In this document: one piece after another, positions 2,295-61,781 of the stretch
Layout: the number at the start of each line of letters is the position of its first letter
Position numbering within the stretch: the stretch's first letter is position 1
Origin: Verrucomicrobiota bacterium
Lineage (GTDB): Bacteria; Verrucomicrobiota; Verrucomicrobiia; Limisphaerales; SIBH01
DNA length: 64,000 nt
Assembly (NCBI GenBank): GCA_038205745.1
Contig: JBBRBM010000003.1
Span: forward strand, 3,879-67,878
Direction of reading: 5' to 3'
Made by a program: the position numbers and the translations under genes
Notes under the pieces: model-generated
Told to the model about the DNA's origin: nothing
Databases searched by the model: none
What the model saw: only the letters and a program-made list of their open reading frames with translations

Positions 2295-2515
2295 TCTCCC
2301 AATCCCACATCAGTGCGAACGGACGGCTCGTCGCGGCGTTGACCAAAGACCTGATGCGCAACTGGGCCGGCACCAAGGAGCAATGGCAGGACGCCAAGGC
2401 CTATGAGTTCGAGCAACGATTCCTTTCCGAGCTGATGAACAGCGTCGATCGTGCGGTGCCGGTCTTTGAAGATTTGGAAAAGGTGATTAGAAAGATCAGG
2501 AGCGACTGTGAGTAA
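2291..2515 (+). CDS. Small (74 aa) WXG100-like helical protein, paralogous to the 90-aa protein
   Basis: It contains a literal W-A-G (residues 25-27) followed by EQWQDAKAYEFEQRF. It shares W-Q-D..F..(E/Q)(F/R)F...VP(F/V)F with the product of 1356-1628. It is translationally coupled on both sides (ATGA at 2291; an 8-nt overlap with GTG 2508). Confidence 0.6.
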   Translation: MISQSHISANGRLVAALTKDLMRNWAGTKEQWQDAKAYEFEQRFLSELMNSVDRAVPVFEDLEKVIRKIRSDCE

Positions 2516-42600: not shown

Positions 42601-45600
42601 TGAGGCTGTTCTCATTGCCGCGGAAGGTGAGCTGACGAAACGCGAGGTCGGTGTCGTCGTTTACGATAGTCAATGTTGCGGTCTTTTGCCCGCCCAAGGG
42701 AATGCCGCCGCTCGGATTGAACAGTGCCATGGCGACGGTTTCGTCGGGCTCGACCACCGCGTCGTCAATCAAGGGAACATCGAACGTCTTCAACGTTTCG
42801 CCAGGCGCGAAGGTGATCGTTCCGTTGGTGAGCACGTAATCAGAGCCGGCAATGGCCGTTCTGTTGCTGACCACGAAGCTGACGCTGACGGTCAGATTGG
42901 TGTTGCCGCTGCGCACGACTGGGATGGAGGCGACACCTGCGTTTTCCGGCACGTCATAGTTCTCCAGCAGGAACTGGATGGCACCGTCGTCAGAAACCAG
43001 CACCACGGTGGCGCTGCTGGGTGAGCCCACCGCATAACCGGGGCGCGGCAGCAGGGAGACGGTCATGAACTCAGCCATCTCCTCCGTAGGATCATCGCGC
43101 GGAATGAGCGTGAGCACGGCGCTGTTGGTTCCCGCCGGGATGGTGATGCTGCCGTTGGTTGAAAGCGTGAAGTCATTGCCGCTGGCGGCGGTGCCATTGA
43201 CCGCGAAAGCAATGGTGAGCGGTGCGTTGGTCGTGCCGCTGCGCGTCACGGTGAAACGCACCGGCTGCGCTCCCAGCTCGTAAGCAATATCGGACGATGG
43301 CGTGATCGTGACGGTCGATGTGCCAACGTCGAGAATGGTCAAGGTGTGGCTCAGGGACGGTCCCAGGAAAGCGTTTGTCGGGACACGCGTGATGACGGTG
43401 CTCATGATTGGAACCCCGTTGTTCGTAGCAAAGGAAATGTTAGTCACGTAACCGCCCGGGTTCATCAACGTCAGCGTAAGGGTGCGGTTCGCGGTGGAGA
43501 CACCGTCGTTCAGAATCGGCACTTGAATGACCTCAATGCTGCCTTCGGCATTCGAGATGATCGGAGCCGGATCGGGATCCTTGACATGGATGAAATGAAG
43601 CACGCCGGTGGCGCCGCGTTCGAAGGAGCCCGGCACATAATTCACGCCAGGGATGGCTGTGCCGCCCAGGATGCGGTAATCGACTTCGACCGGACGATTC
43701 GTGGCGGGATTGGCCGTCACACGGACGTAAATCAACGCGGTGCCGGCATCCTCGCGGATGGTGGACGTGCCCAGGAGGAATCCAACTGCAGGGAGCGCGG
43801 TATCACCTTCATCATCGTTCACGCGGATCGAGCGCGAGGTGGTGGAGCCAAGCAGGTAGTTGGTTCTGGCAAGGAGTTGAATGACGATGTTTTCCGCACC
43901 CAGCACCCGGCCCCGTTCGCGCGCGTTGTCGTTGATGCCGCTCAACGTGATATTGGCGCTGGCTGCGCCCACTGGAATGATCACATTCGTTCCGATGGCC
44001 GTGTAATCGATGCCTTCCCACGCCGTTCCACCCACTTCAAAGACCACATTGAGGCTGTTCGTCGTGGGACCAGTGCGCGTGACGGTAAATGAAGTACTGC
44101 CACCGCTCTCTCCTATGTCGGCGCCGCCGCTGATGGTGACGGTCGGCAATGTGCCGTCGATAAGGGTGACAATCGCGGCGTTGTCGCTGTAGATATTGTA
44201 AGTGGTTGAGTCAGAAATCTGCACAATCACCGTGCGGGGAAGCGGCGTCGATGCCGAAGCAATGGCGCTGATGGACACGTCGATGCTGATCTGCCCGGCC
44301 GGGATGGTGACCGAACCGGCGAGCGTTGTGTAATCGACTCCCGGAAGCGCCGTGCCGGTGACAAGGTAGTTGACGGTGAGATCGTCGCTCAAGGTACCGG
44401 CGCGCGAGAAGGTGACTCGCCCATTGCCGCCTCCGCGAACGGCGCTCGAATCCGCAGCGAAGATGTTCACGAGCGGCAAATCGTCATCGACCACTAGGAA
44501 GTTCGCCGAGCCGCCCGAGATGGTATAGCGATCCTGCGGGTCAGGGAGAATCGTCACAGTGGCTTGCTCGTTGCCTTCCACGAAAAGATCATTCACGGCC
44601 GTGGCGTATACGATGATGAAATATTCTCCCGCAGGAATCGTGACTGAACCGGACAGCCCGGTGTAGTCGAGATTGTTACTCGCAATGCCGCTCAGGCCAT
44701 AGGCAATCGTCAGGTCGTTCGTGATGGGCGCTCCCGAGCGGAAAAAGAAAATCGCCGCCGTATCGCTGCTGGACTCCATGACGTCGGAATCCAAAACTGC
44801 GACACCCACCAGAGGAACGGCGGGCGGGTCGTCGTCAATGATTTGAATGCTGCTTTCAGCCAAACCGAGGACGTAAGTCGGATCGGTCTGGAACCAGGTC
44901 AGCGCCTGACTTGGACCCGACGGACGGAGTTCCCAGCCAGGAATTGCCAGGTTGTTCGTGCGCGTGACGAAAAGAGTGTTGGTCGAGATCACGCTGCCAT
45001 TTGTGGTCAGCACATTCGTCAACACCGTGAACACGCGCAGATCGTTCGTCGCCAGCAGCAGCCGGATCCCCACGCTGTCGTTTCCAGTTCCGACCCCATT
45101 GTCCGTGGGCGTGTAGCGGAAATCGACTGACGAGAATCCAGCCGGGATGATGAAGCGTCGTTGATCGAAGATAATTGTCGCGAAATCTGAAAAGAAATTT
45201 CCCTCATTGAGCTGTCCGATGGGTTCGAAGCGCACCACGAGATCTTCGCTGAGGTCACCATCGCGCGTGACGACGAAATGGCCTTCTTCATCCGACGAGA
45301 CACCATCCTCGCCGGGTTCGTGTGCATCGATGGTCTGTGCAATCCTGACGCGCGTGATCGGCGTGGCGAGAAAATCGAAATCCGTCGTGTTGCCGTCCGT
45401 CACGACCAGAGGATCGGTGAAATTCTGCGGCACGGTGCGGTAGCCGTAAAGGAACCCACGCTCCGTATAGGAGCCGGGAGGAACGTTGCCAATGACGTAG
45501 TAACCGTCGCTGTCCGTGAAGCCATAGCGATAGGTGCCGAGATCGATGGGGTTGTCTCCATCGTCGGGTCGGGCTCGGCTGTTGTGGACGCGCACACCCT

Positions 45601-47996: not shown

Positions 47997-50900
47997 CTAC
48001 GGATTCACGGCGTCCACACGGACGCGGTAAACACGCAGTGGCGCTCCCGCTGTATCCTTCACTGTCAACCGTGTGTTCCCAGATCCATTGATCAAATTCG
48101 TGAGTGTGTGCCATGAACCCGCGCCGAGCGTTTCGGCATACTCGACCGTGCTCGTGGCACCGGCCGGTGCATTCCAGGTCAACGTGACTTCTCCATCGAC
48201 GCTCGACAGCGAGATGGCGAGGCCCAGCTCAACTGACAAGGCGGCCGCGCGCACCGGCGCCGGCAGGATTATGGGCCCGGAACATTGCGCGCCGAACCAA
48301 AGCGCGGAATTACTTGCCTCACCCGGCGGAATGATTGGTGCGCAGTCGATTCCGTTTGGAACGCCGTCGTTGTCCGAATCGATGTCGAGGCTGCGTACGA
48401 GGCCCGCGTTGAACGTATAGGTCACGCCGTTCGTGTACGTGAGGTTGGTTGAACTTTGCGGCCCGGCGAAGTCCCGCACCCATCGGAAGCGGCCCCCTGA
48501 AATGTTCACCAGTCGCTCCGGCTCGACATTGGAATCTGCAAAATAAACCGTGAAATCCGGATCGATGGTGATTGAGCCATTGAAATTTGTGGCGTCATTG
48601 CGCAGCTCAAGGAAATCGACGTAAAGCGCATTGCTGGTCACCCCGCTCGAGAAACGGAACAGGTTCCTGCCGAAGCCATCGAGGACGAGCCGGCCCAGCG
48701 CAATGTTTCCGCTGAAGCCAGCCGGCGAGGTTCCACGGTCCACTCCGGGCCACGCAATACGGGATGATATCAGCGCCCCGGCTGTGGAGTAGATTCTCGT
48801 TCCCATCAAATCGCCAGCGATCGCAGGGAGCCTCGGCAACCGCACGCCGGAAGTGACGAACCAGTCATTCGTCGTGGTGGTGCCCAAGTCGCCGAATGAA
48901 TTGGTGGCGTCGATGACCAGCGCCCCCCGAATGTATTGGCCGAGCGCGTTGCTCACAGTCCCGGCGCTAATGAACGTGCTGGCGAAACTCAGGTTGTTGC
49001 CGTGGAACTCGATGTCCGATGTTGCACGAATCTCTGCATTCGAAATGTTGAGCGTCGATCCGGTCGCGAGAATCACACCGCCATTGGCGGTCAGAAGCGA
49101 CGGGAAGAACGTTCGTCCCACGTTCTGGAGGTTGGTGGAGCGAATCAGCAGCGATGATCCGAGGATCGATCCGTCGTTCACAAAATTGGCCAAAGCCGCC
49201 GGCACTATTGGAACGGGCGGGGTCTTCCTTTTCTTCTTTTTCTTCGGCGGCACATTGGTCGAGACGTGTCCGGCTTCGAAAACACCGAAGTAAGCCGCGC
49301 CCGAAATGTTCACCCCACCGTGATTCGTAAAGTTCAGAAGGTCGGCGGCGTTGGTGAACGCGAAGTTCGCCCCTACCGGCAGATTCAAACTGGCGTTGCT
49401 TTGGATAGTGAGCGCTGGCGCCTTGAGGTTGATCCCGGAATTCACGGACAAATTGTCATGAATGATCAGGCTGGGCGCCTTCACCTGGAACCGATGAAGC
49501 GTCACCGGTTGCTGGGATTCCAGGCAGTTGTCGATGATGAGCACATGGAAGCGCTGGCTCTCCAAGCCGCCTGTGGTCGTGTTGGTGATGTCGGCGGTCC
49601 ACGCGCCGCTCCATGCCGACACGGTGCCGAAAAGGCGATTCACAAAAGACGGTGCAATGTTCGAGAGCACCATGGAGCTGTTGGTCGTGGCCACGTCGAA
49701 GTCGATGAACGGCGCGTCGAGCTGCGCCAGCGTGTTACTGACGAGGTTGTCGGTGTGAATGCCAATGAAATCCTCCGACTTGATGCGCGTCGAGGCGAGG
49801 TTCAGCGAGCGCGCCAGAATGTTCACATTGCCGGTGAAATTCGTGGGGTCCGACAAGCCCGGGTTCACGCCCAACTGCTGGAAGATGGAGCCCGAAAGGA
49901 AAAACTGCTGCGCAAAGCTCGCCGCGTTGGTCTGGCCGACATGCACGGAATGCGCTGCGTAAATGTCGTTCGCGAAGTTCGTGGTGAAGAGCGCATTGTA
50001 GAAGACGCTCGGATCGAACACTGAATTGGCCGGCTGCGCGCCGGTGAAGAAGACGTTCGTGCCGAAAATGATGGGCGGCGAATCGAAATTACAATAACGC
50101 CCGCGGAACCAGGTGTAGGTGGACGGGCGCCGTGTGTTGGGAATCCGAGCTCCGGTCGTGGTCGTAATCGGCCTGGCAAAGAGAACGTTCGTCTGGCTGG
50201 CCGTCGCGTCGATAAAGGTGAGGTAGTTCGTGATGTACTGCTGGTTCACGATGTCGAAGTCCACGTTGCGGAACTCTACCACCGGTGCAAACGCCGAACC
50301 GGCCGGACCGAAGGAGGATATGAATCGAACGTCCACGTTCAGGTTGGAGGGCGAGATCAAGCTGTTCGTGGCCACGAACACGATGTTGATCATGGTGTTC
50401 GTCGGGTTGTTGACGTTGGTGTGAACGTATGCAGTGTAGCCATTGCCGCAGCCACCTCCGAAGAGGCCGAACCCGTTCGCGCCGATGGTGATCGAATTCG
50501 TGAAAAGAAACGAACCGGAGCGTGTAATCACCTGATGCAAAGGCGACGTGGGAAAAGGCAGCGAAAAGTTCGGCGAACTGAAACCCGTCGCAAGGTTCGC
50601 CAGCGAGAGCGGTGTCGCGTTCGTATCCACGGCATCCCCTCGTCCCGCGCCCCAATACAGGTCGGTGATCGCGGTATCCGCCGTGAAGTTCGTGCTCACA
50701 CTGAAGAAGGAGATACACGGCGTGAGGTTGCCGGTGGCTGGGCCCACGCGAATGCCGCCGCGATTCAGGTCCGCATAACCGTTCGAGGCGACCAGGCTGA
50801 TAAAGGCGACTTCCCCGCCATCCAGTCTTCCAGGGTTGACGATGTTGTTGGCGTTCACCAACAGCGACTCCGTGACGGAAATGTTTCCGTCGTTAAGAAA

Positions 50901-51236
50901 CATTTGCGAGGGACGCTGAAGCGCTTTTGAATTCTTGACCGTCCTGCGGCTCCTCGGCTTCTTCAGGCTGGAGCCGTCTGACTCATTGTCGAACCTGTAA
51001 CCGGGCGTGCCGCTCATCACACCGTTGTTGGTCCAGAATGCGACGTTCTGTCCCGTAAAGGGAAGGAAGCTGAACACTTCAAACGTGCTGCGATTCAAGA
51101 ACGCAGTTGCATCGATATTCGGCGGCGTCTGGCCAAGCGTGAGCGGCGAGTTGTTGATGTAAATCGGGGACGTTCCTGCAAAGGCGGGGTTCGTGCCGAT
51201 GAGGGCTGCCAGGATCGATGCCAAAAACTTTTTCAT
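47997..51236 (-). CDS. Secreted N/T/S-rich beta-helix-like repeat protein (1079 aa) with an internal poly-Lys/Arg stretch, a TSP3-like Ca-binding motif and the shared C-terminal domain
   Basis: ATG 51236 gives the signal peptide MKKFLASILAALIGTNPAFAG. The ORF-track start at 51362 would overlap the upstream gene. Long runs of short N/S/T/G-rich beta-strand-like repeats are present. The protein ends ...PLRVYRVRVDAVNP. Confidence 0.8.
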   Translation of the reverse strand: MKKFLASILAALIGTNPAFAGTSPIYINNSPLTLGQTPPNIDATAFLNRSTFEVFSFLPFTGQNVAFWTNNGVMSGTPGYRFDNESDGSSLKKPRSRRTVKNSKALQRPSQMFLNDGNISVTESLLVNANNIVNPGRLDGGEVAFISLVASNGYADLNRGGIRVGPATGNLTPCISFFSVSTNFTADTAITDLYWGAGRGDAVDTNATPLSLANLATGFSSPNFSLPFPTSPLHQVITRSGSFLFTNSITIGANGFGLFGGGCGNGYTAYVHTNVNNPTNTMINIVFVATNSLISPSNLNVDVRFISSFGPAGSAFAPVVEFRNVDFDIVNQQYITNYLTFIDATASQTNVLFARPITTTTGARIPNTRRPSTYTWFRGRYCNFDSPPIIFGTNVFFTGAQPANSVFDPSVFYNALFTTNFANDIYAAHSVHVGQTNAASFAQQFFLSGSIFQQLGVNPGLSDPTNFTGNVNILARSLNLASTRIKSEDFIGIHTDNLVSNTLAQLDAPFIDFDVATTNSSMVLSNIAPSFVNRLFGTVSAWSGAWTADITNTTTGGLESQRFHVLIIDNCLESQQPVTLHRFQVKAPSLIIHDNLSVNSGINLKAPALTIQSNASLNLPVGANFAFTNAADLLNFTNHGGVNISGAAYFGVFEAGHVSTNVPPKKKKKRKTPPVPIVPAALANFVNDGSILGSSLLIRSTNLQNVGRTFFPSLLTANGGVILATGSTLNISNAEIRATSDIEFHGNNLSFASTFISAGTVSNALGQYIRGALVIDATNSFGDLGTTTTNDWFVTSGVRLPRLPAIAGDLMGTRIYSTAGALISSRIAWPGVDRGTSPAGFSGNIALGRLVLDGFGRNLFRFSSGVTSNALYVDFLELRNDATNFNGSITIDPDFTVYFADSNVEPERLVNISGGRFRWVRDFAGPQSSTNLTYTNGVTYTFNAGLVRSLDIDSDNDGVPNGIDCAPIIPPGEASNSALWFGAQCSGPIILPAPVRAAALSVELGLAISLSSVDGEVTLTWNAPAGATSTVEYAETLGAGSWHTLTNLINGSGNTRLTVKDTAGAPLRVYRVRVDAVNP
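48000..48239 (-). other. Shared C-terminal domain, copy 4
   Basis: ...DGEVTLTWNAPAGATSTVEYAETLGAGSWHTLTNL...GAPLRVYRVRVDAVNP. Confidence 0.6.
48336..48386 (-). other. Thrombospondin type-3-like acidic Ca-binding motif (DIDSDNDGVPNGIDCAP)
   Basis: Read directly from the reverse complement of 48361-48386 and following. Confidence 0.6.
49224..49244 (-). other. KKKKKRK stretch within PPKKKKKRKTPP
   Basis: The + strand reads ctt cct ttt ctt ctt ttt ctt, in frame with the gene. Confidence 0.9.
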
Positions 51237-51247
51237 ACTCACGCGCA

Positions 51248-52753
51248 CTACTGGCTGCTTTGTCCTCTCCCCAAGACTTCCCGCCGCAATTGCTGCAAGG
51301 AGATGTTTTTGTATCGCGGATAAATGATCGGCGCGTTCGTGGAACCGTCGAACGAACCCCACACGCCGCTGCCAGATGCAGAATTCTCTCCGGGAAACTC
51401 ATCGAGAAACGCTGACTGGGTGCTGTTTACAAAATAGGGGAGCTGGTCCGAAAAGCTGATGCGAATCGGCGGTGCTATCACACCCGGGCCGTGGCTCAAG
51501 GCGGTTTCGTCCACACCGTTGATCAAATCATTGTCGGTCCAGTTCGCCGTGTCGCTGCGGAGCAGGAGAGCGGGGAGTAAATTGGCAACAAGTCCAATAT
51601 CCTCCGCCACAAAGACAAAATCCGGCTGCGTGATGCCACGGGCCACTGCTTGCACCACCATCGTAAAGTTCGAGCCAACCGCCACGTCCGTGTAGGCGTT
51701 GGTGATCGGCGTGAACGTCTGGCTAAAGATCGAATCGAAGAACACTCGTTGGAACCGCAGCTTGTTGCGCCCGCCCCGAAGCCCCTGGCTGAGGATCGAG
51801 TTCGTGCCGCCAATGACCACGTTCGTCACGCCCACCTGGTTCGTGATGCCGGTAAACGGCACCCACGCGCCCGACGCACCGAGGCCGGAGCCCAACCCGA
51901 CCGTCGGCAGGAGCGTTTCAACGGCCAGATTCTTCGGATCATAAAGAAACTTGATGCCGCCTACATCATCGCGAGTCAATCCCGTGCGGAACAACCCCGG
52001 CGCAATGCTTCCGGCCGGACCGGAATCAGCCACGCCGGTGAGAAACTTGAAGTGCGTGAGGCCCGTTGCCACCGGCACCGTCTCGTCATCGTTTCCGAAG
52101 CGGACTACTTCCAACGCATCCGCATGGTCGAAAGGAGGAGCAGCGAATTCCTGAATTTCGTAAGTGTAAAGCGTCCCGTTGACGTAACGCGACGGCGACA
52201 GCGTAACGGGATCGAAATTGCGCATGATGGTCACGTAGTTCGTGAACGACACGTTGTTCACGGTCGTCACAACCCGCGAGCGCAACGTGAACGTGTAGCG
52301 AATCGGGTCGGCGAACCCGAGTTCCTCCATGATCATCCCCATCGCAGTACTCTTGATATCGATGATCCCCAGCGCGCTCGCCTCGAAATTTTCACGCAGC
52401 GTCGAGGTCGAATATTCATCGAGGCTCGAACTGATCTGCGTCGATTTGGGCAGGTCGTTGAAATACTGGAACGCATCATCGATAGCCTTCGTCCCTTCCG
52501 AGCCGAAGTAATCAATGTACGATTTGTCGCAAGCGTAGGTAACCACGGGTACGTTCCAGCGAAAGCCTTCGCGCAGGTTCATCGGGCCGCCCAGGTCGCC
52601 GCCAAATCCATACGCCAGCCCGTTCACCTGCCATGAGGTGAGCGGACCCAGCAACGAGAACGCCTTCACTCCTGGAGTAGCAACCAACGCGATCACCGCC
52701 GCGCAAAGCTTGATCCATTTCGACATGTTCATGTGCATCGGGCGCGTCTTCAT
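51248..52753 (-). CDS. Secreted protein of unknown function (501 aa)
   Basis: The signal peptide is ...MSKWIKLCAAVIALVATPGVKA / FSLLGP. No catalytic motif was recognised. The start overlaps the upstream stop (ATGA at 52750-52753). Confidence 0.7.
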   Translation of the reverse strand: MKTRPMHMNMSKWIKLCAAVIALVATPGVKAFSLLGPLTSWQVNGLAYGFGGDLGGPMNLREGFRWNVPVVTYACDKSYIDYFGSEGTKAIDDAFQYFNDLPKSTQISSSLDEYSTSTLRENFEASALGIIDIKSTAMGMIMEELGFADPIRYTFTLRSRVVTTVNNVSFTNYVTIMRNFDPVTLSPSRYVNGTLYTYEIQEFAAPPFDHADALEVVRFGNDDETVPVATGLTHFKFLTGVADSGPAGSIAPGLFRTGLTRDDVGGIKFLYDPKNLAVETLLPTVGLGSGLGASGAWVPFTGITNQVGVTNVVIGGTNSILSQGLRGGRNKLRFQRVFFDSIFSQTFTPITNAYTDVAVGSNFTMVVQAVARGITQPDFVFVAEDIGLVANLLPALLLRSDTANWTDNDLINGVDETALSHGPGVIAPPIRISFSDQLPYFVNSTQSAFLDEFPGENSASGSGVWGSFDGSTNAPIIYPRYKNISLQQLRREVLGRGQSSQ

Positions 52754-54240
52754 TGAGCCGTGTAGCGTTGGCCAAACAAATCGAAGGCCGCTTCCGTTTG
52801 ATAACTCGACCAGATCACCATGGCGCGATTGTTCGCGTCCGCAGCGACGGCCGGATGGAATTGCCGCAAATACGTCGTCGTGTTCACGCGGAACTCGGTG
52901 CTCGTGATGTCGCCATCATTGAGCCAGCGACCGAAGACACCTTCACGTGAACCGTCCTGCGCGAGGCCCGTCCACACAACAAGCTGACCGCCGGGTGCGG
53001 CGGCAATCTGCGGGGTGAACTGGTCGCCGTAAGTGCGATTGTTGACGAGAAAACCTTCCGTGACGGCATTGCCTGACGGGCTGTAGGCACGAGCGTAAAT
53101 ATCGAGACTGTTCTCGCGCACCGAATCCTTCTGCGTCCATGTGATCGTGTATCCGCCACCTGCCGACGCGGCCACGCTCGGGCTGCTGCACGGCAAACCC
53201 GCCGTGTTCACCACGAACTCGTCCCCGACCGGTGTTCCATTGTTACTGAATACACGCCCGACGATATCGATCTGCCGGAGCAGTGCTTTGTTCGTGTCAC
53301 TACCGCGAATGATGAACGATTGCGCGACTGCGTCGTAATCCGCCCCGCTGCGCTGCAACTCGGAAGCCCACGCCAAAACGAAAGTTCCATCAGCGCGCGA
53401 CGCGATCGCAGGATTGCGCTGATTGAAAGCGCGAAACTGGTTGGCCAAGATCTCGCCGCCGATCTTTTCTCCCGTCGCCGTGAAGCGCTGAAAGTAAATG
53501 TCCTGCATCGAATCCATCTCGATCGGCACGGTCGTGAGCACAGTGTTGGTGATGCCGCGCTGGCCGCGCCATTTTACTTTCTCTGTGAGCACCTGCGTGG
53601 TGGCGGAAACTTTGCGCCCACTCGTGTATGCAACGATTACGGTGCCGTCAGACAACGTCGCTGCAACGGCTCCACCCGTGCGCTCGAGGTGGCGCTTGAA
53701 TGTTTCCTTGATGCGCACCGCGCGAAAACGCGCGTGATTATTTCGGATCATCGTCGCATTGATGGTAACACGATTGGCACTCTTTCCCTCAGGCGGGTTG
53801 ATCAGAATATCCTGCGCCGTCGTAAACGAGCCGTCCGCATTCAGGAAACGCGCGTAGATGTTTTGGAATCCTTGCTTGCCGCCCTGAAACACGACTGCGG
53901 CGCCACCGTTGCCCAGCAACGTCACGTGAGGTTTTTCCTGGTCACCCACGATCGTCTTGTTCACGCGCAACGCAGCGCCGACCGGATTGAGATTCTCATC
54001 CAGCTTGCGCGCGCCGATGCCAAACCCTTTGCCATCAATGAAGGGATCCTGCCAGACCACCCATCCGCCAGCCGGACTGATCGCGAGGCTGGGAGCGGTT
54101 TGGTCACCTGGAAGCGGGCCGGAGATGGCGGATTCTCCGCCCAGGGGATTAAAAACTGTGCCTGCAAAAACCAGCGTTACGGTCGCGAAAAAAAGTCCGC
54201 TTAGGACAATCCACTTCCGGACGCACGACGCAGGTGACAT
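52750..54240 (-). CDS. Secreted seven-unit repeat protein (probable beta-propeller), function unknown
   Basis: ATG 54240 gives MSPASCVRKWIVLSGLFFATVTLVFAG. Seven ~50-aa units share the pattern (F)xVNxxxxGxQxxPxxAxxxxGxxxxxWxx...G(R)x(F/Y)xxxGxxxxxEF, e.g. EFRVNTTTYLRQFHPAVAADANNRAMVIWSS and GFLVNNRTYGDQFTPQIAAAPGGQLVVWTG. Confidence 0.7.
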   Translation of the reverse strand: MSPASCVRKWIVLSGLFFATVTLVFAGTVFNPLGGESAISGPLPGDQTAPSLAISPAGGWVVWQDPFIDGKGFGIGARKLDENLNPVGAALRVNKTIVGDQEKPHVTLLGNGGAAVVFQGGKQGFQNIYARFLNADGSFTTAQDILINPPEGKSANRVTINATMIRNNHARFRAVRIKETFKRHLERTGGAVAATLSDGTVIVAYTSGRKVSATTQVLTEKVKWRGQRGITNTVLTTVPIEMDSMQDIYFQRFTATGEKIGGEILANQFRAFNQRNPAIASRADGTFVLAWASELQRSGADYDAVAQSFIIRGSDTNKALLRQIDIVGRVFSNNGTPVGDEFVVNTAGLPCSSPSVAASAGGGYTITWTQKDSVRENSLDIYARAYSPSGNAVTEGFLVNNRTYGDQFTPQIAAAPGGQLVVWTGLAQDGSREGVFGRWLNDGDITSTEFRVNTTTYLRQFHPAVAADANNRAMVIWSSYQTEAAFDLFGQRYTAQ

Positions 54241-54335
54241 AGGCTTGGAATTATTATCAATCGTGGTTTTCTTTGTCCACGCTTTCTTGCCCAATCTGGC
54301 TTCAACACGTGGCAAAATGACTGTCAGATGAGTCG

Positions 54336-55229
54336 TCACAACAAACTTCCCTGGGTGGATTGCGTCGCGTCGAGCTGCGCGAGCAATGTTTTGAATCCCC
54401 ACTTCGCATAGAGCGGGCGCAATCGCATCGCGTCGGGAGCGCGCACGGCGAGTTTCTCGAGCTGAAAGTCACACGGCAGATCTGCGTGCAGGCGGATCAA
54501 TTTCTGATTGCGGCGCACGATCGACTCGGCGTCCTGAAGGTTTGCGCGAATGCGCTCGGACTTCACCTCACCAAGCCGCGAGTACATCGCGTCAATCCTG
54601 CCGAACTGCTTCAGCAGATCAGTCGCCGTCTTCGGGCCGACGCCCGGCACGCCTTTGATGTTGTCCACGGAGTCGCCGATTAGACTAAGCCAGTCGACCA
54701 CTTGCTCCGGGTCAAGGCCGGTTTTCGCGCGCACCTGATCGATCCTCCAAATGGTTTCCGATTTGTCGTTCGGATTAAGCAGCCCCACATGGTCGGAAAC
54801 GAGCTGGAGAAAATCCTTGTCCGCGCTGGCGATCACCACTTCCACGCCGCCTCGAACGGCGCAATCGGCCTGGCTCGCGATCCAATCATCCGCCTCGACG
54901 CCTTCGTTCACGAAAGACGGGATGGTGGATGCTGCTAGAAAACTCTCGATCTCTGGCAGTTGTTTTTCCAGATCGCCGGGCATGGGCGGGCGTTGGATTT
55001 TATATTCGGGCAATGCCGCCATGCGCTTCTCGCAGAGCCCGCCGTCCCAGACGACACAGTGGTGCGTCGGCTGGAGCGTGGTTTCCATTTTCAAAAGCAT
55101 CTTGATGAAGCCGTAGATCGCGTTGGTCGGCGCGCCATCCGGGCCATTCAAACTCTGGATCGCATGGAAGGCCCGATACGCGTAAGCGTGGCCATCAACG
55201 ATCAGCAGACGTGGCGAAGCAGCTTGCAT
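54336..55229 (-). CDS. Stand-alone 5'-3' exonuclease (Pol I N-terminal / FEN-like domain)
   Basis: LLIVDGHAYAYRAFHA, VVIASADKDFLQLV and the H3TH motif DNIKGVPGVGPKTATDLLKQFG. ATG 55229 was chosen as the start. Confidence 0.8.
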   Translation of the reverse strand: MQAASPRLLIVDGHAYAYRAFHAIQSLNGPDGAPTNAIYGFIKMLLKMETTLQPTHHCVVWDGGLCEKRMAALPEYKIQRPPMPGDLEKQLPEIESFLAASTIPSFVNEGVEADDWIASQADCAVRGGVEVVIASADKDFLQLVSDHVGLLNPNDKSETIWRIDQVRAKTGLDPEQVVDWLSLIGDSVDNIKGVPGVGPKTATDLLKQFGRIDAMYSRLGEVKSERIRANLQDAESIVRRNQKLIRLHADLPCDFQLEKLAVRAPDAMRLRPLYAKWGFKTLLAQLDATQSTQGSLL

Positions 55230-55282: not shown

Positions 55283-58150
55283 TTACGGCGTAATCACCCG
55301 CGGCAACTGCAACGGAGCTGAATGCTGCGCCGCGAACGGCATCTCCTCGTCCGAGTGCATCCGATTGCCGGCCGGATCGATCAACGTCGGCGTGACGAAA
55401 ATAACGAGATTTTTCTTGTCGCTCCGGTTCGACTCGCTGCGAAAGAAACGTCCGAGAAACGGCAGGTCGCCGAGCACTGGAACTTTGTCCTTCTGCTTCT
55501 GGACGTTTTCCGAAATCAACCCGCCGAGGACGACCGTCTGGCCGTCCCAGACCATCACCGTCGTCGCGACCGTGCGCAGGCGGAACTTGGGCAGAGGCGT
55601 TTGCTGCACGAGCGCCGTCGTCGGCGGTCCACTGCCGCCCACGGATTGCGCTTGCGCGACAAAAGCGCTGGCATCGTCGTAACCAAGAAACTCTTTCAAC
55701 GACGGCAACAACGTCATCGTGATCGTGTACCCGTCTGCATTCACGTACGGCACCACGTCGAGAACTGGACCGAGTTCAAAGGGTTCGGTGATCGGCTGAA
55801 CGGTTGTGCCGATGCCACCGCCCGTGGTCACCGCTCCCGCGCCCCCCAACCCGCCGCCGGCTGCCGTCTGATTCAGGTCCAGATCAGTGACGATGTACTT
55901 CACGTCCACCACTTTGATCTGCGCCTGCCGTCCGCTCATGGTCGTAACTTCAGGACAGCTCAACAAGTCGGTGCCGCCGCGCTGTTCGAGCGCGCGCACC
56001 ACGAACTTGAATTGCGGATCGGTCAGAATGCCGGTGACCGATGCGAGCGCCGGAGCACTGTTGCGCAAACCACCGGTGAGCAAACTGTCCGTGCCGGATG
56101 CCGGAGTGGCGAACGGTCCCGGCACACCCGGTGCGGATCCCGGTCCGGGAAACCAACCGCTCGGATTCGCGGGTGTCGGCGCGCCTTGATAACTCGGAGC
56201 AGTGCCCGCCTGCGCACCGATCGCTCCGTGGTTCAGCAACGTGTTGCCCAGATACCAATCGAAACCGAGGGCTCGATTGTCATCCTGCGTCACTTCCATG
56301 AACTTCGCGCGGATGGTCAATTGCGGCGGCGCCATGTTGAGCATCTGCACCGCTTTCTCGATCGTGTCGAGATCCTGCAACGTCGCCCGCACCATGAGCA
56401 CGCCGAGACGGTCGTTGAAGAAGACCGCCTTGCCGACATCGTCGAGATTCACGCCCGCCGTGCTGAAGAACAACTTCACCTGCGGGATGACAATCGCTGA
56501 AGGAGTGACGTCGGTAAGAAATTCGATGCCGCCGGAACCTTGGGGCAAGGCTCCACCACCAGCACCACCCGCCTGCGCGCCTGCGCGGCCAGGTTGTGCG
56601 GCACGACCGCCGCCAGCCTGCTGGCCTCCTCGGCCTCCGCCGCCGCCGGGTGCGATGGAAACGGTGGCGTAGGATGCGCCGCCGCCGCTACTGTTACCGT
56701 TCTGATTATTGCCGCCTTGATTGTTGCCGCCGCCACCACGATTACCCCCGCCGCCGCCACCACGATTACCGCCGCCGCCACCACCCCGTCCACCACCACC
56801 ACCACCACCACCGCCGCCACCACCGCCGTTTTGCGCTGCGCCAAAGTCCAATGATGTCACGTTGGCGAGACCTTGCCAGAAGGTGTTCGGATCGACTTTG
56901 AAGAAGCGCGTGTGCAGTGGAACCGCTTCCACCGGCTTCGGCGAAATCACAACGCCCCAGTCTTCGACCGAGTATTTGATTTTCTTGTCCGCGACCATCG
57001 TGACGATGTTGAGCGCTTCCTCGAGCGAGATGTCGCGCAACGGGGTGCTGATCGTAATCGTGACGCCACCGACAAGATCGAGCGTCTCCCCGCCGGGCGC
57101 AGGCAATTCCGCGCCGGGAATTGGCCCTCCGCCGGGGAAACCGGGTCCGCCGGGAAATCCCGTGGTGGGTGGCGCCGTGGCGGTATCCGCATTCGGGCTG
57201 ATCAGGAAATTCACGCCCTTGGTCGCGGGATTCGGATCAAGATCTCGGCGGCGCGCCTCGGCATTCAACTGCGAAATCACCTCGCCAAGTGGAAGCTTGT
57301 CCACCATGAACTCGTTCAGGCGAATCCGCTGCAGCTTGTCGTAGACTTTCTGCCGTCCGGAGCCGGTATACACGATGTTGGTCCGCGCATAAATGTTCGG
57401 CACCGGCAGCGTTTCACGCTTCACGTTGTCCGCCCATTGGCGCTCGACTTCGAGCATCATCTGCTTGGAGTTCACGTCGCGCAGACGCAGTTCTTCCGAG
57501 TAACGGCGGGCATTGACGAGATCGAGATAGTACGCGGCTGCCTTATTGTTCGGATCGAGCTTGATCGAGGCGCGCAAAGCCTTTTCGGATTCGTTCAAAC
57601 GTCCGGTTTCGTAAAACAGCTTTCCGTCCTGCACGAGCTTGGCCACTTCCACGCGGTTGGTCTCGGTCAACTCAATGATCTTGAGCGTGCTGTCGTGCGG
57701 CATCTTGTCGTACGTCTCGGCGATCATGCGGTTGTTCCTGGTCCGCATGTCGAGCGCGAGCTTGTTCTTGGGATCTTCGGTCAGCACGCGGTCGAGGTGG
57801 ACCTTGGCTCCGGCAAAATTACCGCTGCGCATCTCATTATCCGCGATGGCCAGCGTGGTTCGCCCGAGACCTGCGACGGCTTCCGTGCGTTGCGGTTCGA
57901 TGACGCCGCCGATCTCGCGCAGCGACTGCAACGCTTTGTTGTACATCTGGGACGCGGGCACGATGTCCCGCTGGACTTCGAGCGTGCGTCCCTGGTCGAT
58001 GAGGTTGCGAGCCTCCATCAACTTGTTTTCTCGGCGCACCGCCGCATCGATCGCAGCTTGCGTTTCAGGAGGGACGTCTTGGGCGTGAAGCACTGGCGTC
58101 GCAGCCAGGGCGACGGCCAGACACAGCGAAGGAAAGACAGCATGATTCAT
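55283..58150 (-). CDS. Secretin (PilQ/GspD family) with an N-terminal TPR-like region and a ~100-aa Gly/Arg/Asn-rich insert
   Basis: The signal peptide is MNHAVFPSLCLAVALAATPVLHA. The secretin core includes LTIRAKFMEVTQDDNRALGFDW and KDKVPVLGDLPFLGRFFRSESNRSDKKNLVIFVTPTLI. By position it matches Amuc_1098 in the Akkermansia cluster. Confidence 0.85.
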   Translation of the reverse strand: MNHAVFPSLCLAVALAATPVLHAQDVPPETQAAIDAAVRRENKLMEARNLIDQGRTLEVQRDIVPASQMYNKALQSLREIGGVIEPQRTEAVAGLGRTTLAIADNEMRSGNFAGAKVHLDRVLTEDPKNKLALDMRTRNNRMIAETYDKMPHDSTLKIIELTETNRVEVAKLVQDGKLFYETGRLNESEKALRASIKLDPNNKAAAYYLDLVNARRYSEELRLRDVNSKQMMLEVERQWADNVKRETLPVPNIYARTNIVYTGSGRQKVYDKLQRIRLNEFMVDKLPLGEVISQLNAEARRRDLDPNPATKGVNFLISPNADTATAPPTTGFPGGPGFPGGGPIPGAELPAPGGETLDLVGGVTITISTPLRDISLEEALNIVTMVADKKIKYSVEDWGVVISPKPVEAVPLHTRFFKVDPNTFWQGLANVTSLDFGAAQNGGGGGGGGGGGGGRGGGGGGNRGGGGGGNRGGGGNNQGGNNQNGNSSGGGASYATVSIAPGGGGGRGGQQAGGGRAAQPGRAGAQAGGAGGGALPQGSGGIEFLTDVTPSAIVIPQVKLFFSTAGVNLDDVGKAVFFNDRLGVLMVRATLQDLDTIEKAVQMLNMAPPQLTIRAKFMEVTQDDNRALGFDWYLGNTLLNHGAIGAQAGTAPSYQGAPTPANPSGWFPGPGSAPGVPGPFATPASGTDSLLTGGLRNSAPALASVTGILTDPQFKFVVRALEQRGGTDLLSCPEVTTMSGRQAQIKVVDVKYIVTDLDLNQTAAGGGLGGAGAVTTGGGIGTTVQPITEPFELGPVLDVVPYVNADGYTITMTLLPSLKEFLGYDDASAFVAQAQSVGGSGPPTTALVQQTPLPKFRLRTVATTVMVWDGQTVVLGGLISENVQKQKDKVPVLGDLPFLGRFFRSESNRSDKKNLVIFVTPTLIDPAGNRMHSDEEMPFAAQHSAPLQLPRVITP
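56727..56784 (-). repeat. In-frame 24-nt tandem repeat (~2.5 copies) encoding RGGGGGGN units
   Basis: ccgccgccaccacgattacc occurs at 56727-56746 and again at 56751-56770. A partial third copy starts at 56772. Confidence 0.85.
56791..56811 (-). repeat. (CAC)7 / (GTG)7 trinucleotide microsatellite within a poly-Gly coding run
   Basis: caccaccaccaccaccaccac read on the + strand. Confidence 0.85.
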
Positions 58151-58190
58151 CGTGTGCGTAACTCAGAATATGGGAAGACAAGGCAAAGCA

Positions 58191-58988
58191 TTATTTACGA
58201 ATCGTTGCACGTCGATTGTTTGAACTTGCGGACACTACAACCTCGTTTTCCGTGATAGCAACGATATTGTATTCTTCACCGCCCACAGTCAGCTTGTCGC
58301 CGACGCGCAGGTCTTTGAACGAGAGCTTGGGCTCGGGCGGATACGTCAAATCCGCCTTGTAGCCTTCCACTTCGGTGTAGGGCTTTTCCAACGTGACACT
58401 CGTTTTTTTCCCGTCCGCCAGTTCAATGACGGCTTCCGGTTGCTCAGGCGTGCCGCGAATGTCGCGCAATGTAAAAAGCTTCGAGGTGTGCTGCGTGTTG
58501 GTGGTGACGTATTGCGAAATCTTTATTCGCGCGCGGGCGTTCGTGGCCGCCTCCTGAACCGCGCTCATGTACAATCCACCCGGTGTCACACGGTCCACGG
58601 CGACAATCGTCCTCAATGGCGCGGTGTTCACCAATTTGAGAGCAGCACCGCCGACTTCCGTTCCTTTTTCGATTTTGAGCAGGGAGCCATCGGGCTTCTT
58701 CTGCCACGTCACGGGATTGACCAAGTTGTGCGGCAAACCGAAATCGAGCGCTGGCGGGTTCTTCGCTTTTTCAAGGGCGCCGGAAAGCTGCGCGAGATCG
58801 ACGGAAGGAACTTCCTTGCCCTTCTTCTTCTGCACGTTGCGATCGTACTCGCGAATCTTGTCTTCCTCGGCCTGGCGCACACCATACAGGTAAACGACCG
58901 CGCCGAGGAAACCGATCAACGCGAGCGCGACAATCACCTTCTCGTAGTGTTTCGCAAACAGGCCGCCAATTTTTCGCAGGAAGTTCAT
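58191..58988 (-). CDS. Single-pass membrane protein in the PilP position (Amuc_1099-position homologue), function unknown
   Basis: The N-terminal TM is VIVALALIGFLGAVVYLY. Its start overlaps the upstream stop (ATGA at 58985-58988). It lies between the PilO-position gene and the secretin. Confidence 0.6.
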   Translation of the reverse strand: MNFLRKIGGLFAKHYEKVIVALALIGFLGAVVYLYGVRQAEEDKIREYDRNVQKKKGKEVPSVDLAQLSGALEKAKNPPALDFGLPHNLVNPVTWQKKPDGSLLKIEKGTEVGGAALKLVNTAPLRTIVAVDRVTPGGLYMSAVQEAATNARARIKISQYVTTNTQHTSKLFTLRDIRGTPEQPEAVIELADGKKTSVTLEKPYTEVEGYKADLTYPPEPKLSFKDLRVGDKLTVGGEEYNIVAITENEVVVSASSNNRRATIRK

Positions 58989-59896
58989 CGCGCTGGTTTG
59001 ATCACTTCCACTTTGAGCACCACGCGCAGCAGGCGCTCCCTGAGAATCGTTTCAAGCCCGGACGGAGCAGCCGCGGCGGGGCGGGATCCGCCTCGACCAC
59101 CTCGACCAGGCGGCGCATTGCCAGGAACCGGCGCTGCTCCTGGTTGCTGTCGGGTGGGCAGCGGTTCAGCAGGTTCAACCACCACCGACCGCACGACGTA
59201 AGCCTCCGGCATGCGCGAGATGCCTTCGATCACCGCTGCCAGTTCCGGCGAGAAGGAATGAAAAACGATTTCGTAGGGCCACATCACCATGCCCGCGTCG
59301 GCATTGAAGTGCGGAGCCTCAGGCAGGTAATCCCCCGCAGAATTCGCACCCGGGATTTCATCCGTCACGCGCGCACGGCGAATCGATTCCAGCCGGTTCA
59401 CCTTGCCCTTGAACAGGAGCGACGACAGTTGCTTCACCTCCGCGAGCCTTTCGCTCAAGGGTTGCAGGCTCCCGGGTGGAAACGACGCGGAAGGCCATTG
59501 GCTCGCGAAGCTGAAATGGTAGTTGGTCTCGACGCGAATGCCCGCTGCGCTCGCTTCCTTCACCAGCTCCGCCACCGTGTTGTGCAGAAGCGACGCAAAC
59601 GATTGATTGTTCAACGGAGTTGTCGGCAAGAGGGATGGGGGGAAGAATTTCTGCGCTTCCGCCGTGAAGTCGGCCACACGCTTGATCTCCCGCTGCGCGA
59701 CCGCAATGTTGCTCGGACTCGGATAATAAGGTGCTCCAATAAGCCGATCCAACTCAGCCTTCAAGCCGCCGATCTCATTATCGACGCCTTTGTTCTTATC
59801 CATCGCGCGCATGAGATACCAGCCGCCAAAACCGATTAAGCCAATCGCTACGGCGGCACTGATCACCACGACGAGATGTCTTTTGAACCAGGCCAT
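58985..59896 (-). CDS. Amuc_1100-family pilus-associated protein (PilO position)
   Basis: An N-terminal TM (VVVISAAVAIGLIGFGGWYL) is followed by a coiled coil. The blocks WPYEIVFHSFSPELAAVIEGISRMPEAYVVRSVVVEP and RERLLRVVLKVEVIKP are collinear with my recollection of A. muciniphila Amuc_1100 (PLEIAFQGDRESVLKAMNAITGMQDYLFTVNSIRI...; KEQVFVQVSLNLVHF). Synteny is the same (secretin, hypothetical, Amuc_1100, PilM-like). Confidence 0.6.
   Translation of the reverse strand: MAWFKRHLVVVISAAVAIGLIGFGGWYLMRAMDKNKGVDNEIGGLKAELDRLIGAPYYPSPSNIAVAQREIKRVADFTAEAQKFFPPSLLPTTPLNNQSFASLLHNTVAELVKEASAAGIRVETNYHFSFASQWPSASFPPGSLQPLSERLAEVKQLSSLLFKGKVNRLESIRRARVTDEIPGANSAGDYLPEAPHFNADAGMVMWPYEIVFHSFSPELAAVIEGISRMPEAYVVRSVVVEPAEPLPTRQQPGAAPVPGNAPPGRGGRGGSRPAAAAPSGLETILRERLLRVVLKVEVIKPAR
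59057..59164 (-). other. Pro/Gly/Arg-rich low-complexity segment (PLPTRQQPGAAPVPGNAPPGRGGRGGSRPAAAAPSG)
   Basis: Read from the translation. Coordinates were derived by counting back from the stop. Confidence 0.8.
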
Positions 59897-59897
59897 C

Positions 59898-61781
59898 TTA
59901 GAGCTTGAGCGGGTTCTTCAGAGCGACGTGCATCTGGAACGTGAACGTGTCGCCGTCCGGCACGACCGACCCGCCAGGAGGAAAGCCAGTGTTGGTGGAA
60001 ACGAACATGGAACTCGCCTTCAATTCCTTCTCGATCATGTAGGCGAGTTCAAGATTTGAATCCGCCTTGCCGGTGCGCTGCACCAGATCGACCGCGCGCA
60101 CAACGAGAGTGATCGTCTCGCACGGAACGCCTGCAGCGGCGCTCCCGCCAGCCATCGTTCCACCATCTCCACGACGCCTGTTCGGACCACCGCCACCGCC
60201 ATCCAACTGAGGGGGGCCGCCGCCACCGCCGCCGGGGCGACCTCTGCGTCCACCGAATCCGGGAGGAGGCGTGGAAGGTGGCGGTGCGGCCGCTCCGGCC
60301 ACCGGCGCCCGACCACTGCAATCCGGAACGAACTGCTCGATCCAAACACCCGTCTCGACTTTGAACTGCTCACTCGCCTTTCGTTCAGTCGCGATGAGGA
60401 TGCTGCGGAAATTCGTCAGCACATTCCCCCAGTAAGGCTTGTCGTTCAGCCACTCGACAAACTGTGCCGCCCGCCCCTGCGTCACATTGAGCACCTTGAG
60501 CTCGCGATCCAGCTTTTCGCTCGCCGCCTTCAGCTTGGCGACTTCGCCCTGCAACCGGTCTCGCGATGCCGTCTTCGACTCCGCGATCTGGTTGTAGAAA
60601 AATCCGTAGGCCCACACGATCGCCACCACACAAGCCATCGTCGCGACGAAGTAAGGTTTCTTCGCGCCGAACTCGCGACCCTTCACCGCACTCTTCGGCA
60701 TGAGGTTCAGCTCGACGGGGCAATGCGCGAGGTTGCGCAGTCCAAGACCGACGAGTTCGCCCATCTGGTGGCCGATCTTCGCGAGTTCCTCGATGTTCAC
60801 CGAGGGATCGATCTGCACGTTGCGCAGCGGATTGAAGTACTCCACCGGCAGGTTCAATTTCTCCGCGAAGAACTGCGCCGTGTAAGGCATCGCAGACGCG
60901 CCGCCCGACAGGAACAATCGCACTGGAGCCGCCCCGCCCTGCTGGCCGCGATAGAATTGAACCGTCTGGTTCACCTGGATGTGCAACCGCGTCATCACTT
61001 GACGCGCGATTTTCGAAATCGCCTGCTGCGCTGGATCGTCCGGCTCCTCATAAGCGCCGCCGAGACTGACAAACCCTTGAGAGATCTTCAGCTCTTCCGC
61101 CGCGTCGTAGCTCAGCTTTGATTCTTTCGCGAAATCGACGGTGATGGAGTTCGCGCCGATGTTGATGCCGCGCGCGTAAACATTCTCCTTGTCGAAAAAC
61201 AGCAGGTTGCTCGTCTTCGCACCAATATCGAGCAGCATCGTGCAGCCCTCGATATCGCCGTAGTTGTAACGGAAGGCGTTGGCGAGAGCCGCTGGAGAAA
61301 CATCCACGACACCTAGCTTCAGGCCGGCCTTCTCCGTCGTGCGGAAAAGTCCCTCGACGATCTCCGTCTTGATCGCCACGAGCAACACTTCGAGCTCGCC
61401 CGTCGGCGTCGCACCAAGAATCTGGTAATCCCAAACGACCTCTTCGAGCGGGAACGGAACGTTCTGCTGCGCCTCGTACTGAATGATCTGGGGAACCTTC
61501 GAGTTATCGACTGGTGGCAGCTTGACGAATTTCGAGAAGACGTGAAAACCCGGCGCGCAAACGTTCGCCTGCTTCGAGCCCGTGCCGCACTCGGCGAGCA
61601 CTTCCGCGAGCGCTTTTTGGATGACCGGTTCGCGCGTGCTCTCCTGCATCGCCTCGGGGCCAAGCGCGCGGAACGCGTAATGACTCAGGCGCAGCCCCCC
61701 GGCTTCGTTCGGCTCAAACGCCGCGACCTTGAGCGTCGAAGCCCCAAGATCCAGCGCCAAAAATGATTTCGCGTTCAGCAT
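59898..61781 (-). CDS. pilM: Type IV pilus assembly PilM (actin-like ATPase fold) fused to a PilN-like TM/coiled-coil segment and a C-terminal periplasmic domain
   Basis: ATG 61781 gives MLNAKSFLALDLGASTLKVAAFE..., a typical PilM start. After ~360 aa comes the TM PYFVATMACVVAIVWAYGFFY plus a coiled coil (PilN-like). A G/P/R-rich linker and a ~76-aa terminal domain follow. The stop lies 1 nt from the next start. Confidence 0.8.
   Translation of the reverse strand: MLNAKSFLALDLGASTLKVAAFEPNEAGGLRLSHYAFRALGPEAMQESTREPVIQKALAEVLAECGTGSKQANVCAPGFHVFSKFVKLPPVDNSKVPQIIQYEAQQNVPFPLEEVVWDYQILGATPTGELEVLLVAIKTEIVEGLFRTTEKAGLKLGVVDVSPAALANAFRYNYGDIEGCTMLLDIGAKTSNLLFFDKENVYARGINIGANSITVDFAKESKLSYDAAEELKISQGFVSLGGAYEEPDDPAQQAISKIARQVMTRLHIQVNQTVQFYRGQQGGAAPVRLFLSGGASAMPYTAQFFAEKLNLPVEYFNPLRNVQIDPSVNIEELAKIGHQMGELVGLGLRNLAHCPVELNLMPKSAVKGREFGAKKPYFVATMACVVAIVWAYGFFYNQIAESKTASRDRLQGEVAKLKAASEKLDRELKVLNVTQGRAAQFVEWLNDKPYWGNVLTNFRSILIATERKASEQFKVETGVWIEQFVPDCSGRAPVAGAAAPPPSTPPPGFGGRRGRPGGGGGGPPQLDGGGGGPNRRRGDGGTMAGGSAAAGVPCETITLVVRAVDLVQRTGKADSNLELAYMIEKELKASSMFVSTNTGFPPGGSVVPDGDTFTFQMHVALKNPLKL
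60129..60314 (-). other. Gly/Pro/Arg-rich low-complexity linker in the PilM/N fusion
   Basis: GRAPVAGAAAPPPSTPPPGFGGRRGRPGGGGGGPPQLDGGGGGPNRRRGDGGTMAGGSAAAG. Confidence 0.85.

Follow-up and report, generated by a model that had tools for sequence, protein, structure and literature searches.

A PilMNOPQ-like alignment and secretin operon of a Verrucomicrobiota bacterium and its conserved linkage to genes for secreted and giant Calx-beta proteins

Introduction

What is the role of a pilus-type alignment and secretin operon that is followed by genes for secreted proteins, several of them of giant size? The question is raised by a 64-kb stretch of DNA from a Verrucomicrobiota bacterium (GenBank assembly GCA_038205745.1, contig JBBRBM010000003.1, positions 3,879 to 67,878), the whole of which was analyzed and is hereafter called the window. 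The minus strand of its positions 55283-61781 consists of four tightly packed genes, encoding a PilM/N fusion protein, an Amuc_1100-like protein (p303), a single-pass membrane protein (p265), and a secretin. In Akkermansia muciniphila, the Amuc_1098-Amuc_1102 genes have been described as a 'type IV pili' cluster, and pili-like structures were reported (Ottman et al. 2017, PMC5332112). Amuc_1100 and Amuc_1098 are in development as probiotic effector proteins, and the role of their gene cluster is only assumed to be that of "pili". The original prediction, made from the window sequence, assigned the operon to the Amuc_1098-1101 type, and suggested that its secretin may be the outer-membrane conduit for six secreted proteins encoded downstream, rather than, or as well as, for a pilus.

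In this study, we report an analysis of this operon, its proteins, and its genomic neighborhood in related bacteria. The four genes encode that part of a type IV filament machine which comprises the alignment complex and the secretin, without the motor. Together with three genes for secreted proteins, termed X, Y, and Z, and usually with a gene for a giant Calx-beta protein, this module behaves as one unit across deep divergence while its surroundings change. The machine half of this array is familiar; what is new is its fixed genetic coupling to a giant adhesin and to three secreted protein families without annotation. Full-text searches of the literature turned up no account of this longer array or of its X, Y, and Z proteins.

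Results

Gene content and protein families of the operon

The four genes of the operon are as follows.

61781 (ATG) to 59898 (stop), minus strand: PilM/N fusion, 627 aa, Amuc_1101 homologue
59896-58985, minus strand: p303, Amuc_1100-family, PilO-like bitopic protein
58988-58191, minus strand: p265, single-pass protein, positional equivalent of Amuc_1099, PilP, or GspC
58150-55283, minus strand: secretin, 955 aa, with a PF00263 domain

The fusion gene and p303 are separated by 1 nt, p303 and p265 share an ATGA overlap, and a gap of 40 nt precedes the secretin gene, so that the open reading frame (ORF) coordinates agree with the gene order and the junctions described in the original prediction. 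The uvrA gene (61998-63959) lies 186 nt from the fusion gene with no ORF between them, and an Amuc_1102-like gene upstream of the PilM-like gene is therefore absent. Each of the inner-membrane components contains exactly one hydrophobic segment (aa 377-395 in PilM/N, 8-26 in p303, and 18-36 in p265).

The fusion protein begins with a PilM actin-like ATPase domain (aa 1-350). The transmembrane helix at aa 377-395 and a coiled-coil-like segment come next, and a Gly/Pro-rich linker leads to a small globular domain at the C-terminus. It passes the cut-offs of both PF11104 PilM_2 (1.8e-35, 122.9 bits, cut-off 27) and TIGR01175 pilM (157.3 bits, cut-off 133). The match to Amuc_1101_fam (8.6e-149, 497 bits) covers aa 1-460 of the protein and positions 1-459 of the 608-position model and stays below the equivalog cut-off of 650, and by these scores the fusion is a clear homologue of Amuc_1101, not an equivalog. 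No PilN Pfam match was obtained in the C-terminal halves of 10 fusion homologues, even at E<=5, and the "PilN" part is therefore an architectural call, referring to a PilN/GspL/MshI-like topology and not to sequence identity. Of the proposed PilM/PilN fusion, the PilM part thus stands on family models, whereas the PilN part stands on topology and has no sequence match.

The secretin consists of a signal peptide, a TPR-containing N-terminal region (with TPR_2 near the N-terminus at 27.2 bits), a conserved N domain, a Gly/Asn-rich linker (aa ~440-540), and the C-terminal secretin domain (PF00263, 2.4e-34). Among the family models, Amuc_1098_fam is matched at 3.8e-112 and 375.8 bits, missing the cut-off of 750, and on this score the protein is a homologue of Amuc_1098, not an equivalog. 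The generic secretin models are matched in the order GspD (1.4e-47, 162.5 bits, cut-off 351 missed), MshL (5.5e-39, below cut-off), and PilQ (TIGR02515, 1.2e-30, 106.9 bits, cut-off 284 missed). No AMIN domain was detected in the Pfam scan.

The p303 protein matches NCBIfam Amuc_1100_fam at 2.3e-14 and 53.6 bits (cut-off 180 missed), and precomputed annotations place PF28028 Amuc_1100 on the identical database protein P0001 and on all 25 homologues. Sequence searches of the PDB with p303, by direct phmmer as well as by profile, did not reach the Amuc_1100 structures, and the fold was tested for this reason. An AlphaFold2 model built from 26 sequences (predicted local distance difference test score, pLDDT, 76.5) has a transmembrane segment and a long helix at its N-terminus, additional helices, and a sheet of the ferredoxin-like type. 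In a Foldseek search of the PDB with this model, ranks 1-10 were all taken by Amuc_1100 (6LAF, 6LAD, and 6KNY), with E-values of 4e-8 to 7e-7 and template modeling (TM) scores by target of 0.69-0.77. The next matches were PilO of Pseudomonas aeruginosa (2RJZ and 5UVR) and the PilO chain Oa in the Myxococcus pilus machine model 3JC8; the match to 2RJZ_A has an E-value of 4.4e-3 and a probability of 1.0, and the likeness to PilO is at the fold level only, with 8-13% identity. Judged by this predicted structure, p303 is Amuc_1100-like and the Amuc_1100 family has the PilO fold.

By its place in the operon, p265 is the equivalent of Amuc_1099, PilP, or GspC. The window protein matches pilP_fam at an E-value of 0.011, does not match Amuc_1099_fam at E<=1, and has no match in Pfam or among PDB sequences; a Pfam scan of 42 homologues was likewise without PilP or GspC. 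Among 41 members of the p265 family, weak matches to pilP_fam and to Amuc_1099_fam were found in 16 proteins each (best 1.4e-4 and 3.2e-4, respectively). The protein is anchored by its transmembrane segment, and its N-terminus showed no lipobox when inspected. Position and single-pass topology agree with the Amuc_1099 slot, and p265 is consistent, on weak support, with a PilP/Amuc_1099 equivalent. Overall, family hidden Markov models (HMMs) and Foldseek uphold the pilMNOPQ-like, Amuc_1098-1101-type identity of the operon, and the Amuc_1100-like call in particular held under both sequence and structure comparison (Amuc_1100_fam, PF28028, and Foldseek ranks 1-10).

Long low-complexity linkers rich in Gly, Pro, Asn, and Arg are present in three of the four machine proteins, at aa ~480-540 of PilM/N, aa 248-284 of p303, and aa ~440-540 of the secretin, where an example reads GGGGGGRGGGGGGNRGGGG. 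The p303 linker is predicted to be disordered in the AlphaFold2 model. Such linkers may act as spacers for a wide periplasm.

Conservation of the operon with downstream genes

The operon is followed in the window by seven co-directional genes.

54336..55229, minus strand: stand-alone 5'-3' exonuclease (FEN-like), PF02739 6.3e-46 and PF01367 3e-28
52750..54243, minus strand: X, Sec-signal protein with about 7-8 repeats
51248..52753, minus strand: Y, Sec-signal protein of a large uncharacterized family
47997..51236, minus strand: Z, beta-helix-like protein with a C-terminal module
36602..47887, minus strand: giant g3761, with Calx-beta, DUF11, DUF5122, and PKD domains, a signal peptide, and a C-terminal module at aa 3687-3761
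28267..36495, minus strand: giant g2742, with 11 Calx-beta and 19 DUF5122 repeats, a signal peptide, and a C-terminal module
13787..28213, minus strand: giant g4827, with 16 Calx-beta and 24 DUF5122 repeats, DUF11, a signal peptide, and a C-terminal module

The X and Y genes are joined by an ATGA overlap, and Z starts 11 nt past Y. A sigma-70-like promoter match, the only one in 15 kb, lies at 54279-54250, just upstream of X and past the exonuclease gene.

A pattern of conserved neighbors was first seen around p303 and p265 homologues on long contigs. A genome scan with one genome per species, using a profile built from the first 440 aa of the secretin, a region specific to the family, then identified 239 relatives in which this region is conserved. 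The array counts given here rest on the best 80 of the 239 loci, all from Limisphaerales, Pedosphaera, or "subdivision 3" genomes; HMMs of each gene were mapped onto the loci, and each count is limited to loci with enough sequence. All loci follow one single order, namely PilM/N, p303, p265, secretin, an optional exonuclease, X, Y, and Z. X follows the secretin or the exonuclease in 68 of 68 loci, X and Y in 61 of 61, and X, Y, and Z in 54 of 55, at protein identities to the window proteins down to 26-35%. Of the 29 loci that extend for at least 900 nt past Z, 25 have a co-directional ORF there that runs off the locus, and in 18 of the 29 the gene after Z resembles N-terminal regions of the window giants (g4827 in 16 and g3761 in two). 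In both of the closest genomes, L009 and L010, the gene past Z shows homology with the N-terminus of g3761. Three look-ups centered on Y (L089-L091) found the same array followed by a Calx-beta/DUF5122 gene of 2379-2700 aa after Z, a full-length counterpart of g4827, and no two neighbors among the eight genes of L089 lie more than 43 nt apart. Thus, the linkage between the operon and the secreted-protein genes that was proposed for the window is kept in related genomes, with X-Y-Z in fixed order and usually a giant Calx-beta gene after them.

The exonuclease gene is located between the secretin gene and X in 37 of 68 loci and is absent in the others; this FEN-like gene is a housekeeping-type passenger whose gain or loss has left the rest of the array unchanged. 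The upstream flank also varies: the window has uvrA here, L006 has purH, and about half of the loci have an epimerase gene. Genes for exosortase EpsH and an EpsI-like DUF3485 protein, a Bac_transf sugar transferase, and an NAD-dependent epimerase directly precede the array on the same strand in 23-32 of 61 loci. Such flanks are found at L007 2361-6728, L042 1261-4594, and L089 1-1389, and Wzz/Poly_export genes occur in L006. The upstream flank suggests a link with exopolysaccharide/PEP-CTERM surface loci.

Several metagenome-assembled genome (MAG) records that carry this clearly verrucomicrobial array (L009, L018, L020, L024, L029, L039, L054, L071, and L077) are titled Bifidobacteriaceae, Bifidobacterium, Dongiaceae, Candidatus Acidoferrum, Acidimicrobiia, or Limnocylindrales. 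They are probably mislabeled or contaminated bins.

Secreted proteins encoded downstream

Sec-type signal sequences are present at the N-termini of X, Y, Z, and the three giants, and domain scans of these six proteins detected no autotransporter or TpsB-type barrel. The repeat of X has the motif GDQ..P.VA...G.FVV.W in about 7-8 copies. For the X protein of the window, neither Pfam nor the PDB gave a match; GH43 propellers were weakly matched by 7 of 33 X homologues, and longer homologues carry extra FN3/TSP3 domains and a C-terminal module. Its repeats and these weak matches indicate that X is probably a beta-propeller. Z, for which Pfam and PDB searches were likewise negative, contains Asn/Gly-rich repeats, a DSDGDG motif, and the C-terminal module; its repeat composition suggests a beta-helix.

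The Y family comprises at least 1208 homologous clusters, all unnamed and without Pfam annotation, and its mature N-terminus, FSLLGP, is almost invariant. Y has no match among PDB sequences and no NCBIfam relative. Its AlphaFold2 model is confident (pLDDT 86, predicted TM score 0.86), and a Foldseek search against the PDB returned nothing below an E-value of 0.8, the best being local matrix metalloproteinase (MMP) matches of about 35 residues. Given a confident model without a significant match to a solved structure, Y is predicted to have a new fold. Two other identities were considered and rejected. A metzincin-like enzyme was rejected on the quality of the MMP matches (E>0.8, TM score 0.07) and on the lack of a conserved His or HExxH motif, no conserved His/Glu metal site being found in the family. 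A pilin, which the FSLLGP N-terminus might bring to mind, was rejected because Y has its hydrophobic segment ahead of the cleavage site, in the manner of Sec signal peptides, and not behind it.

The original prediction regarded all six secreted proteins as CTD-bearing. A C-terminal module of ~70 aa ending in [FY][FY]R[VL] is indeed common to four of them, g4827 (13790-14014), g2742 (28270-28494), g3761 (36605-36829), and Z (48000-48224), whereas it is absent from the window X and Y. The C-terminal motif is kept in nearly all complete Z homologues, and an NCBIfam scan of the four modules detected no known sorting-domain family. A profile search of 1.84 billion representative proteins found the module in 1374 proteins at E<=0.001. 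Among the best 149 of them, 133 contain several copies, and in 104 the last copy reaches to within 8 residues of the C-terminal end, typically with RFYRV/L. The module is widespread, repeatable, and beta-rich, and it strongly favors the very end of the protein. These features are compatible with a role in anchoring or sorting but are not evidence for it, and a module so widespread and so often in tandem is no demonstrated secretion tag.

Pilin and motor genes

As predicted, pilin and motor genes are absent near the operon: the annotated ORFs of the window include no PilB/T/C-type gene and a single prepilin-type gene, encoding a DUF1559/H-X9-DG protein, at 117-1010. About 1.5 kb from the latter, on the opposite strand, a gene at 2508-6344 encodes a 1278-aa ATPase of the FtsK/SpoIIIE family, which is not a pilus motor. 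Among 91 related loci, only two prepilin-type genes were found within about 10 kb of the array. One, of the DUF1559 type, lies between the exonuclease and X in L079 (3641-4507) and is the sole one inside the array in the 91 loci; the other is near the locus start in L078, upstream of the array. In type IVa systems, pilMNOPQ is normally encoded apart from the pilin and ATPase genes. Since this is the usual arrangement, the absence of such genes is no evidence against a pilus, and that part of the earlier argument is not supported.

Discussion

Proposed role of the array

The simplest and most likely reading of the array is secretin-mediated export or display of X, Y, Z, and the giants in the manner of a type II secretion system (T2SS), a tentative proposal to which we assign a probability of about 0.45. 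It is simplest because the downstream proteins have Sec N-termini and no outer-membrane translocator domain, and the secretin is the sole co-encoded channel. A fused PilM/N protein, a PilO-like protein, a transmembrane-anchored PilP-like protein, and a secretin also form the layout of GspL-M-C-D and of MshI-J-K-L. By the identifications given above, the PilM domain with its PilN/GspL-like part, the PilO-fold Amuc_1100 homologue, and the transmembrane-anchored PilP/GspC-like protein make up an inner-membrane alignment complex, coupled to an outer-membrane secretin that bears its own N-terminal TPR region. A pilin or pseudopilin, an ATPase, a platform protein, and a prepilin peptidase have to be encoded elsewhere. 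In the proposed scheme, X, Y, Z, and the giants would cross the inner membrane by the Sec pathway and fold in the periplasm, from which a short (pseudo)pilus on the PilM/N-O-P platform may expel or display them through the secretin. The products of the neighboring genes would then be dedicated cargo or surface partners.

Several points weigh against this reading. Passage of these proteins through the secretin is an inference. The PilM domain belongs by sequence to the PilM family of type IV pili and not to GspL, and the GspD, MshL, and PilQ models all remain below cut-off for the secretin. Apart from the prepilin-type genes of L079 and L078, no linked pseudopilin or ATPase gene was found in the 91 loci. 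The giants, at 2700-4800 aa, are larger than any T2SS substrate known to us, and the C-terminal module, being widespread and often tandem, is not specific to the array. The comparative genomes all come from one order (Limisphaerales/Pedosphaerales). Finally, the array stands beside exopolysaccharide/exosortase genes in many genomes, which makes a surface or adhesion locus with independent export a serious rival.

In that rival explanation, the operon is an ordinary type IV pilus alignment and secretin subcomplex through which nothing but a pilus passes. X, Y, Z, and the giant protein would serve in adhesion or in a matrix as products of a surface/biofilm locus, would be co-regulated with the pilus or associated with it like PilY1, and would reach the surface by another export route. 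We regard this as rather unlikely, although several observations suit it: the PilM domain scores above the TIGR01175 pilM cut-off, p303 has the predicted PilO fold, members of the p265 family weakly match pilP_fam, pili-like structures have been reported in Akkermansia (PMC5332112), and in 23-32 of 61 loci the array is directly downstream of the exosortase/EpsI, sugar-transferase, and epimerase genes, with exopolysaccharide and surface functions. However, the array encodes no alternative outer-membrane export component, pilin or minor-pilin features are absent from X, Y, and Z, and an invariant order with adjacency at 26-35% identity is tighter than is usual for mere co-regulation.

The same strict one-to-one co-occurrence and fixed order of X-Y-Z with the operon could instead mean that these proteins are structural accessories of the machine and not its cargo, for example partners in the periplasm or outer membrane with a part in assembling, gating, or anchoring the secretin. 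Y has an invariant mature N-terminus and, in addition, Asp, Arg, and Gly residues that are invariant at many positions, which suggests that a surface for interaction is conserved. We consider this explanation quite improbable, since the size of the proteins (500-1100 aa), their repeat architectures, and their variable insertions of the Ig, FN3, and He_PIG types are more like those of surface proteins than of core parts, and since Z shares its C-terminal module with the giant adhesin-like proteins. The weakest alternative, that the linkage is an inherited gene order without functional meaning, draws on the origin of all 80 loci from Limisphaerales/Pedosphaerales-type genomes and is very improbable in view of the deep sequence divergence among the loci, intergenic gaps down to 9-43 nt plus an ATGA overlap, and an order left untouched while both flanks were reshuffled and a housekeeping gene was inserted or lost inside the array.

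T2SS-like export or display could be taken a step further. The array might represent a distinct Limisphaerales subtype of secretin export or display system that has not been described before, in which a PilM/N-O-P-secretin platform of the Amuc_1098-1101 type is dedicated to the new core proteins X, Y, and Z and to the giant Calx-beta adhesins, and in which the RFYR[VL] module serves for recognition or anchoring. The much-studied Amuc_1100 cluster of Akkermansia would then, by extension, be an apparatus for secretion or display and not simply a pilus. This extended version is doubtful. The C-terminal module may be a sorting or anchoring element in Verrucomicrobiota, and its description comes with the definition of three sizeable unannotated protein families. 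The PilO fold of the Amuc_1100 family and the fixed coupling in a large sister lineage lead to a testable hypothesis of an export or display conduit, for which candidate cargo can be named.

Comparison with known systems

The operon shares with the type IVa PilMNOPQ subcomplexes of Pseudomonas aeruginosa and Myxococcus xanthus its gene order and predicted topology, a PilM domain that passes the family cut-off, the predicted PilO fold, and its location apart from pilin and motor genes. It differs from them in that a single polypeptide contains PilM together with the PilN-like part, the PilP-like protein is predicted to be anchored by a transmembrane segment and not as a lipoprotein, the secretin falls under the PilQ cut-off with no AMIN domain detected, and conserved secreted-protein genes follow downstream in the window lineage.

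Compared with T2SS and the mannose-sensitive hemagglutinin (MSHA) system, the window locus has no sequence match to GspL, GspM, or GspC, so that the likeness is architectural only, and it lacks the GspE, GspF, and GspG-K genes of T2SS. The shared features are an actin-like cytoplasmic domain fused to a bitopic periplasmic domain, as in GspL and MshI, a PilO-like partner, a transmembrane-anchored PilP-like protein, as in GspC, and a secretin whose best generic matches are GspD and MshL. T2SS loci sometimes adjoin the genes of their substrates, as pulA does with the pul genes.

The Akkermansia cluster has the same order of four genes, for a PilM-like fusion, an Amuc_1100-family protein, Amuc_1099, and a secretin, homologous to those of the operon and, in the case of Amuc_1099 and p265, probably so, and its Amuc_1100 crystal structures are those on which the p303 model superposes best. 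In contrast to that cluster, the window has no Amuc_1102-like gene, the periplasmic half of its fusion protein does not align to Amuc_1101_fam, its secretin has a TPR-bearing N-terminal region, and the operon continues into the X-Y-Z-giant extension, which is not described there. All scores of the window proteins against the Akkermansia family models are below the equivalog cut-offs, and the operon therefore represents a sister lineage of the Akkermansia cluster and not a set of its orthologues.

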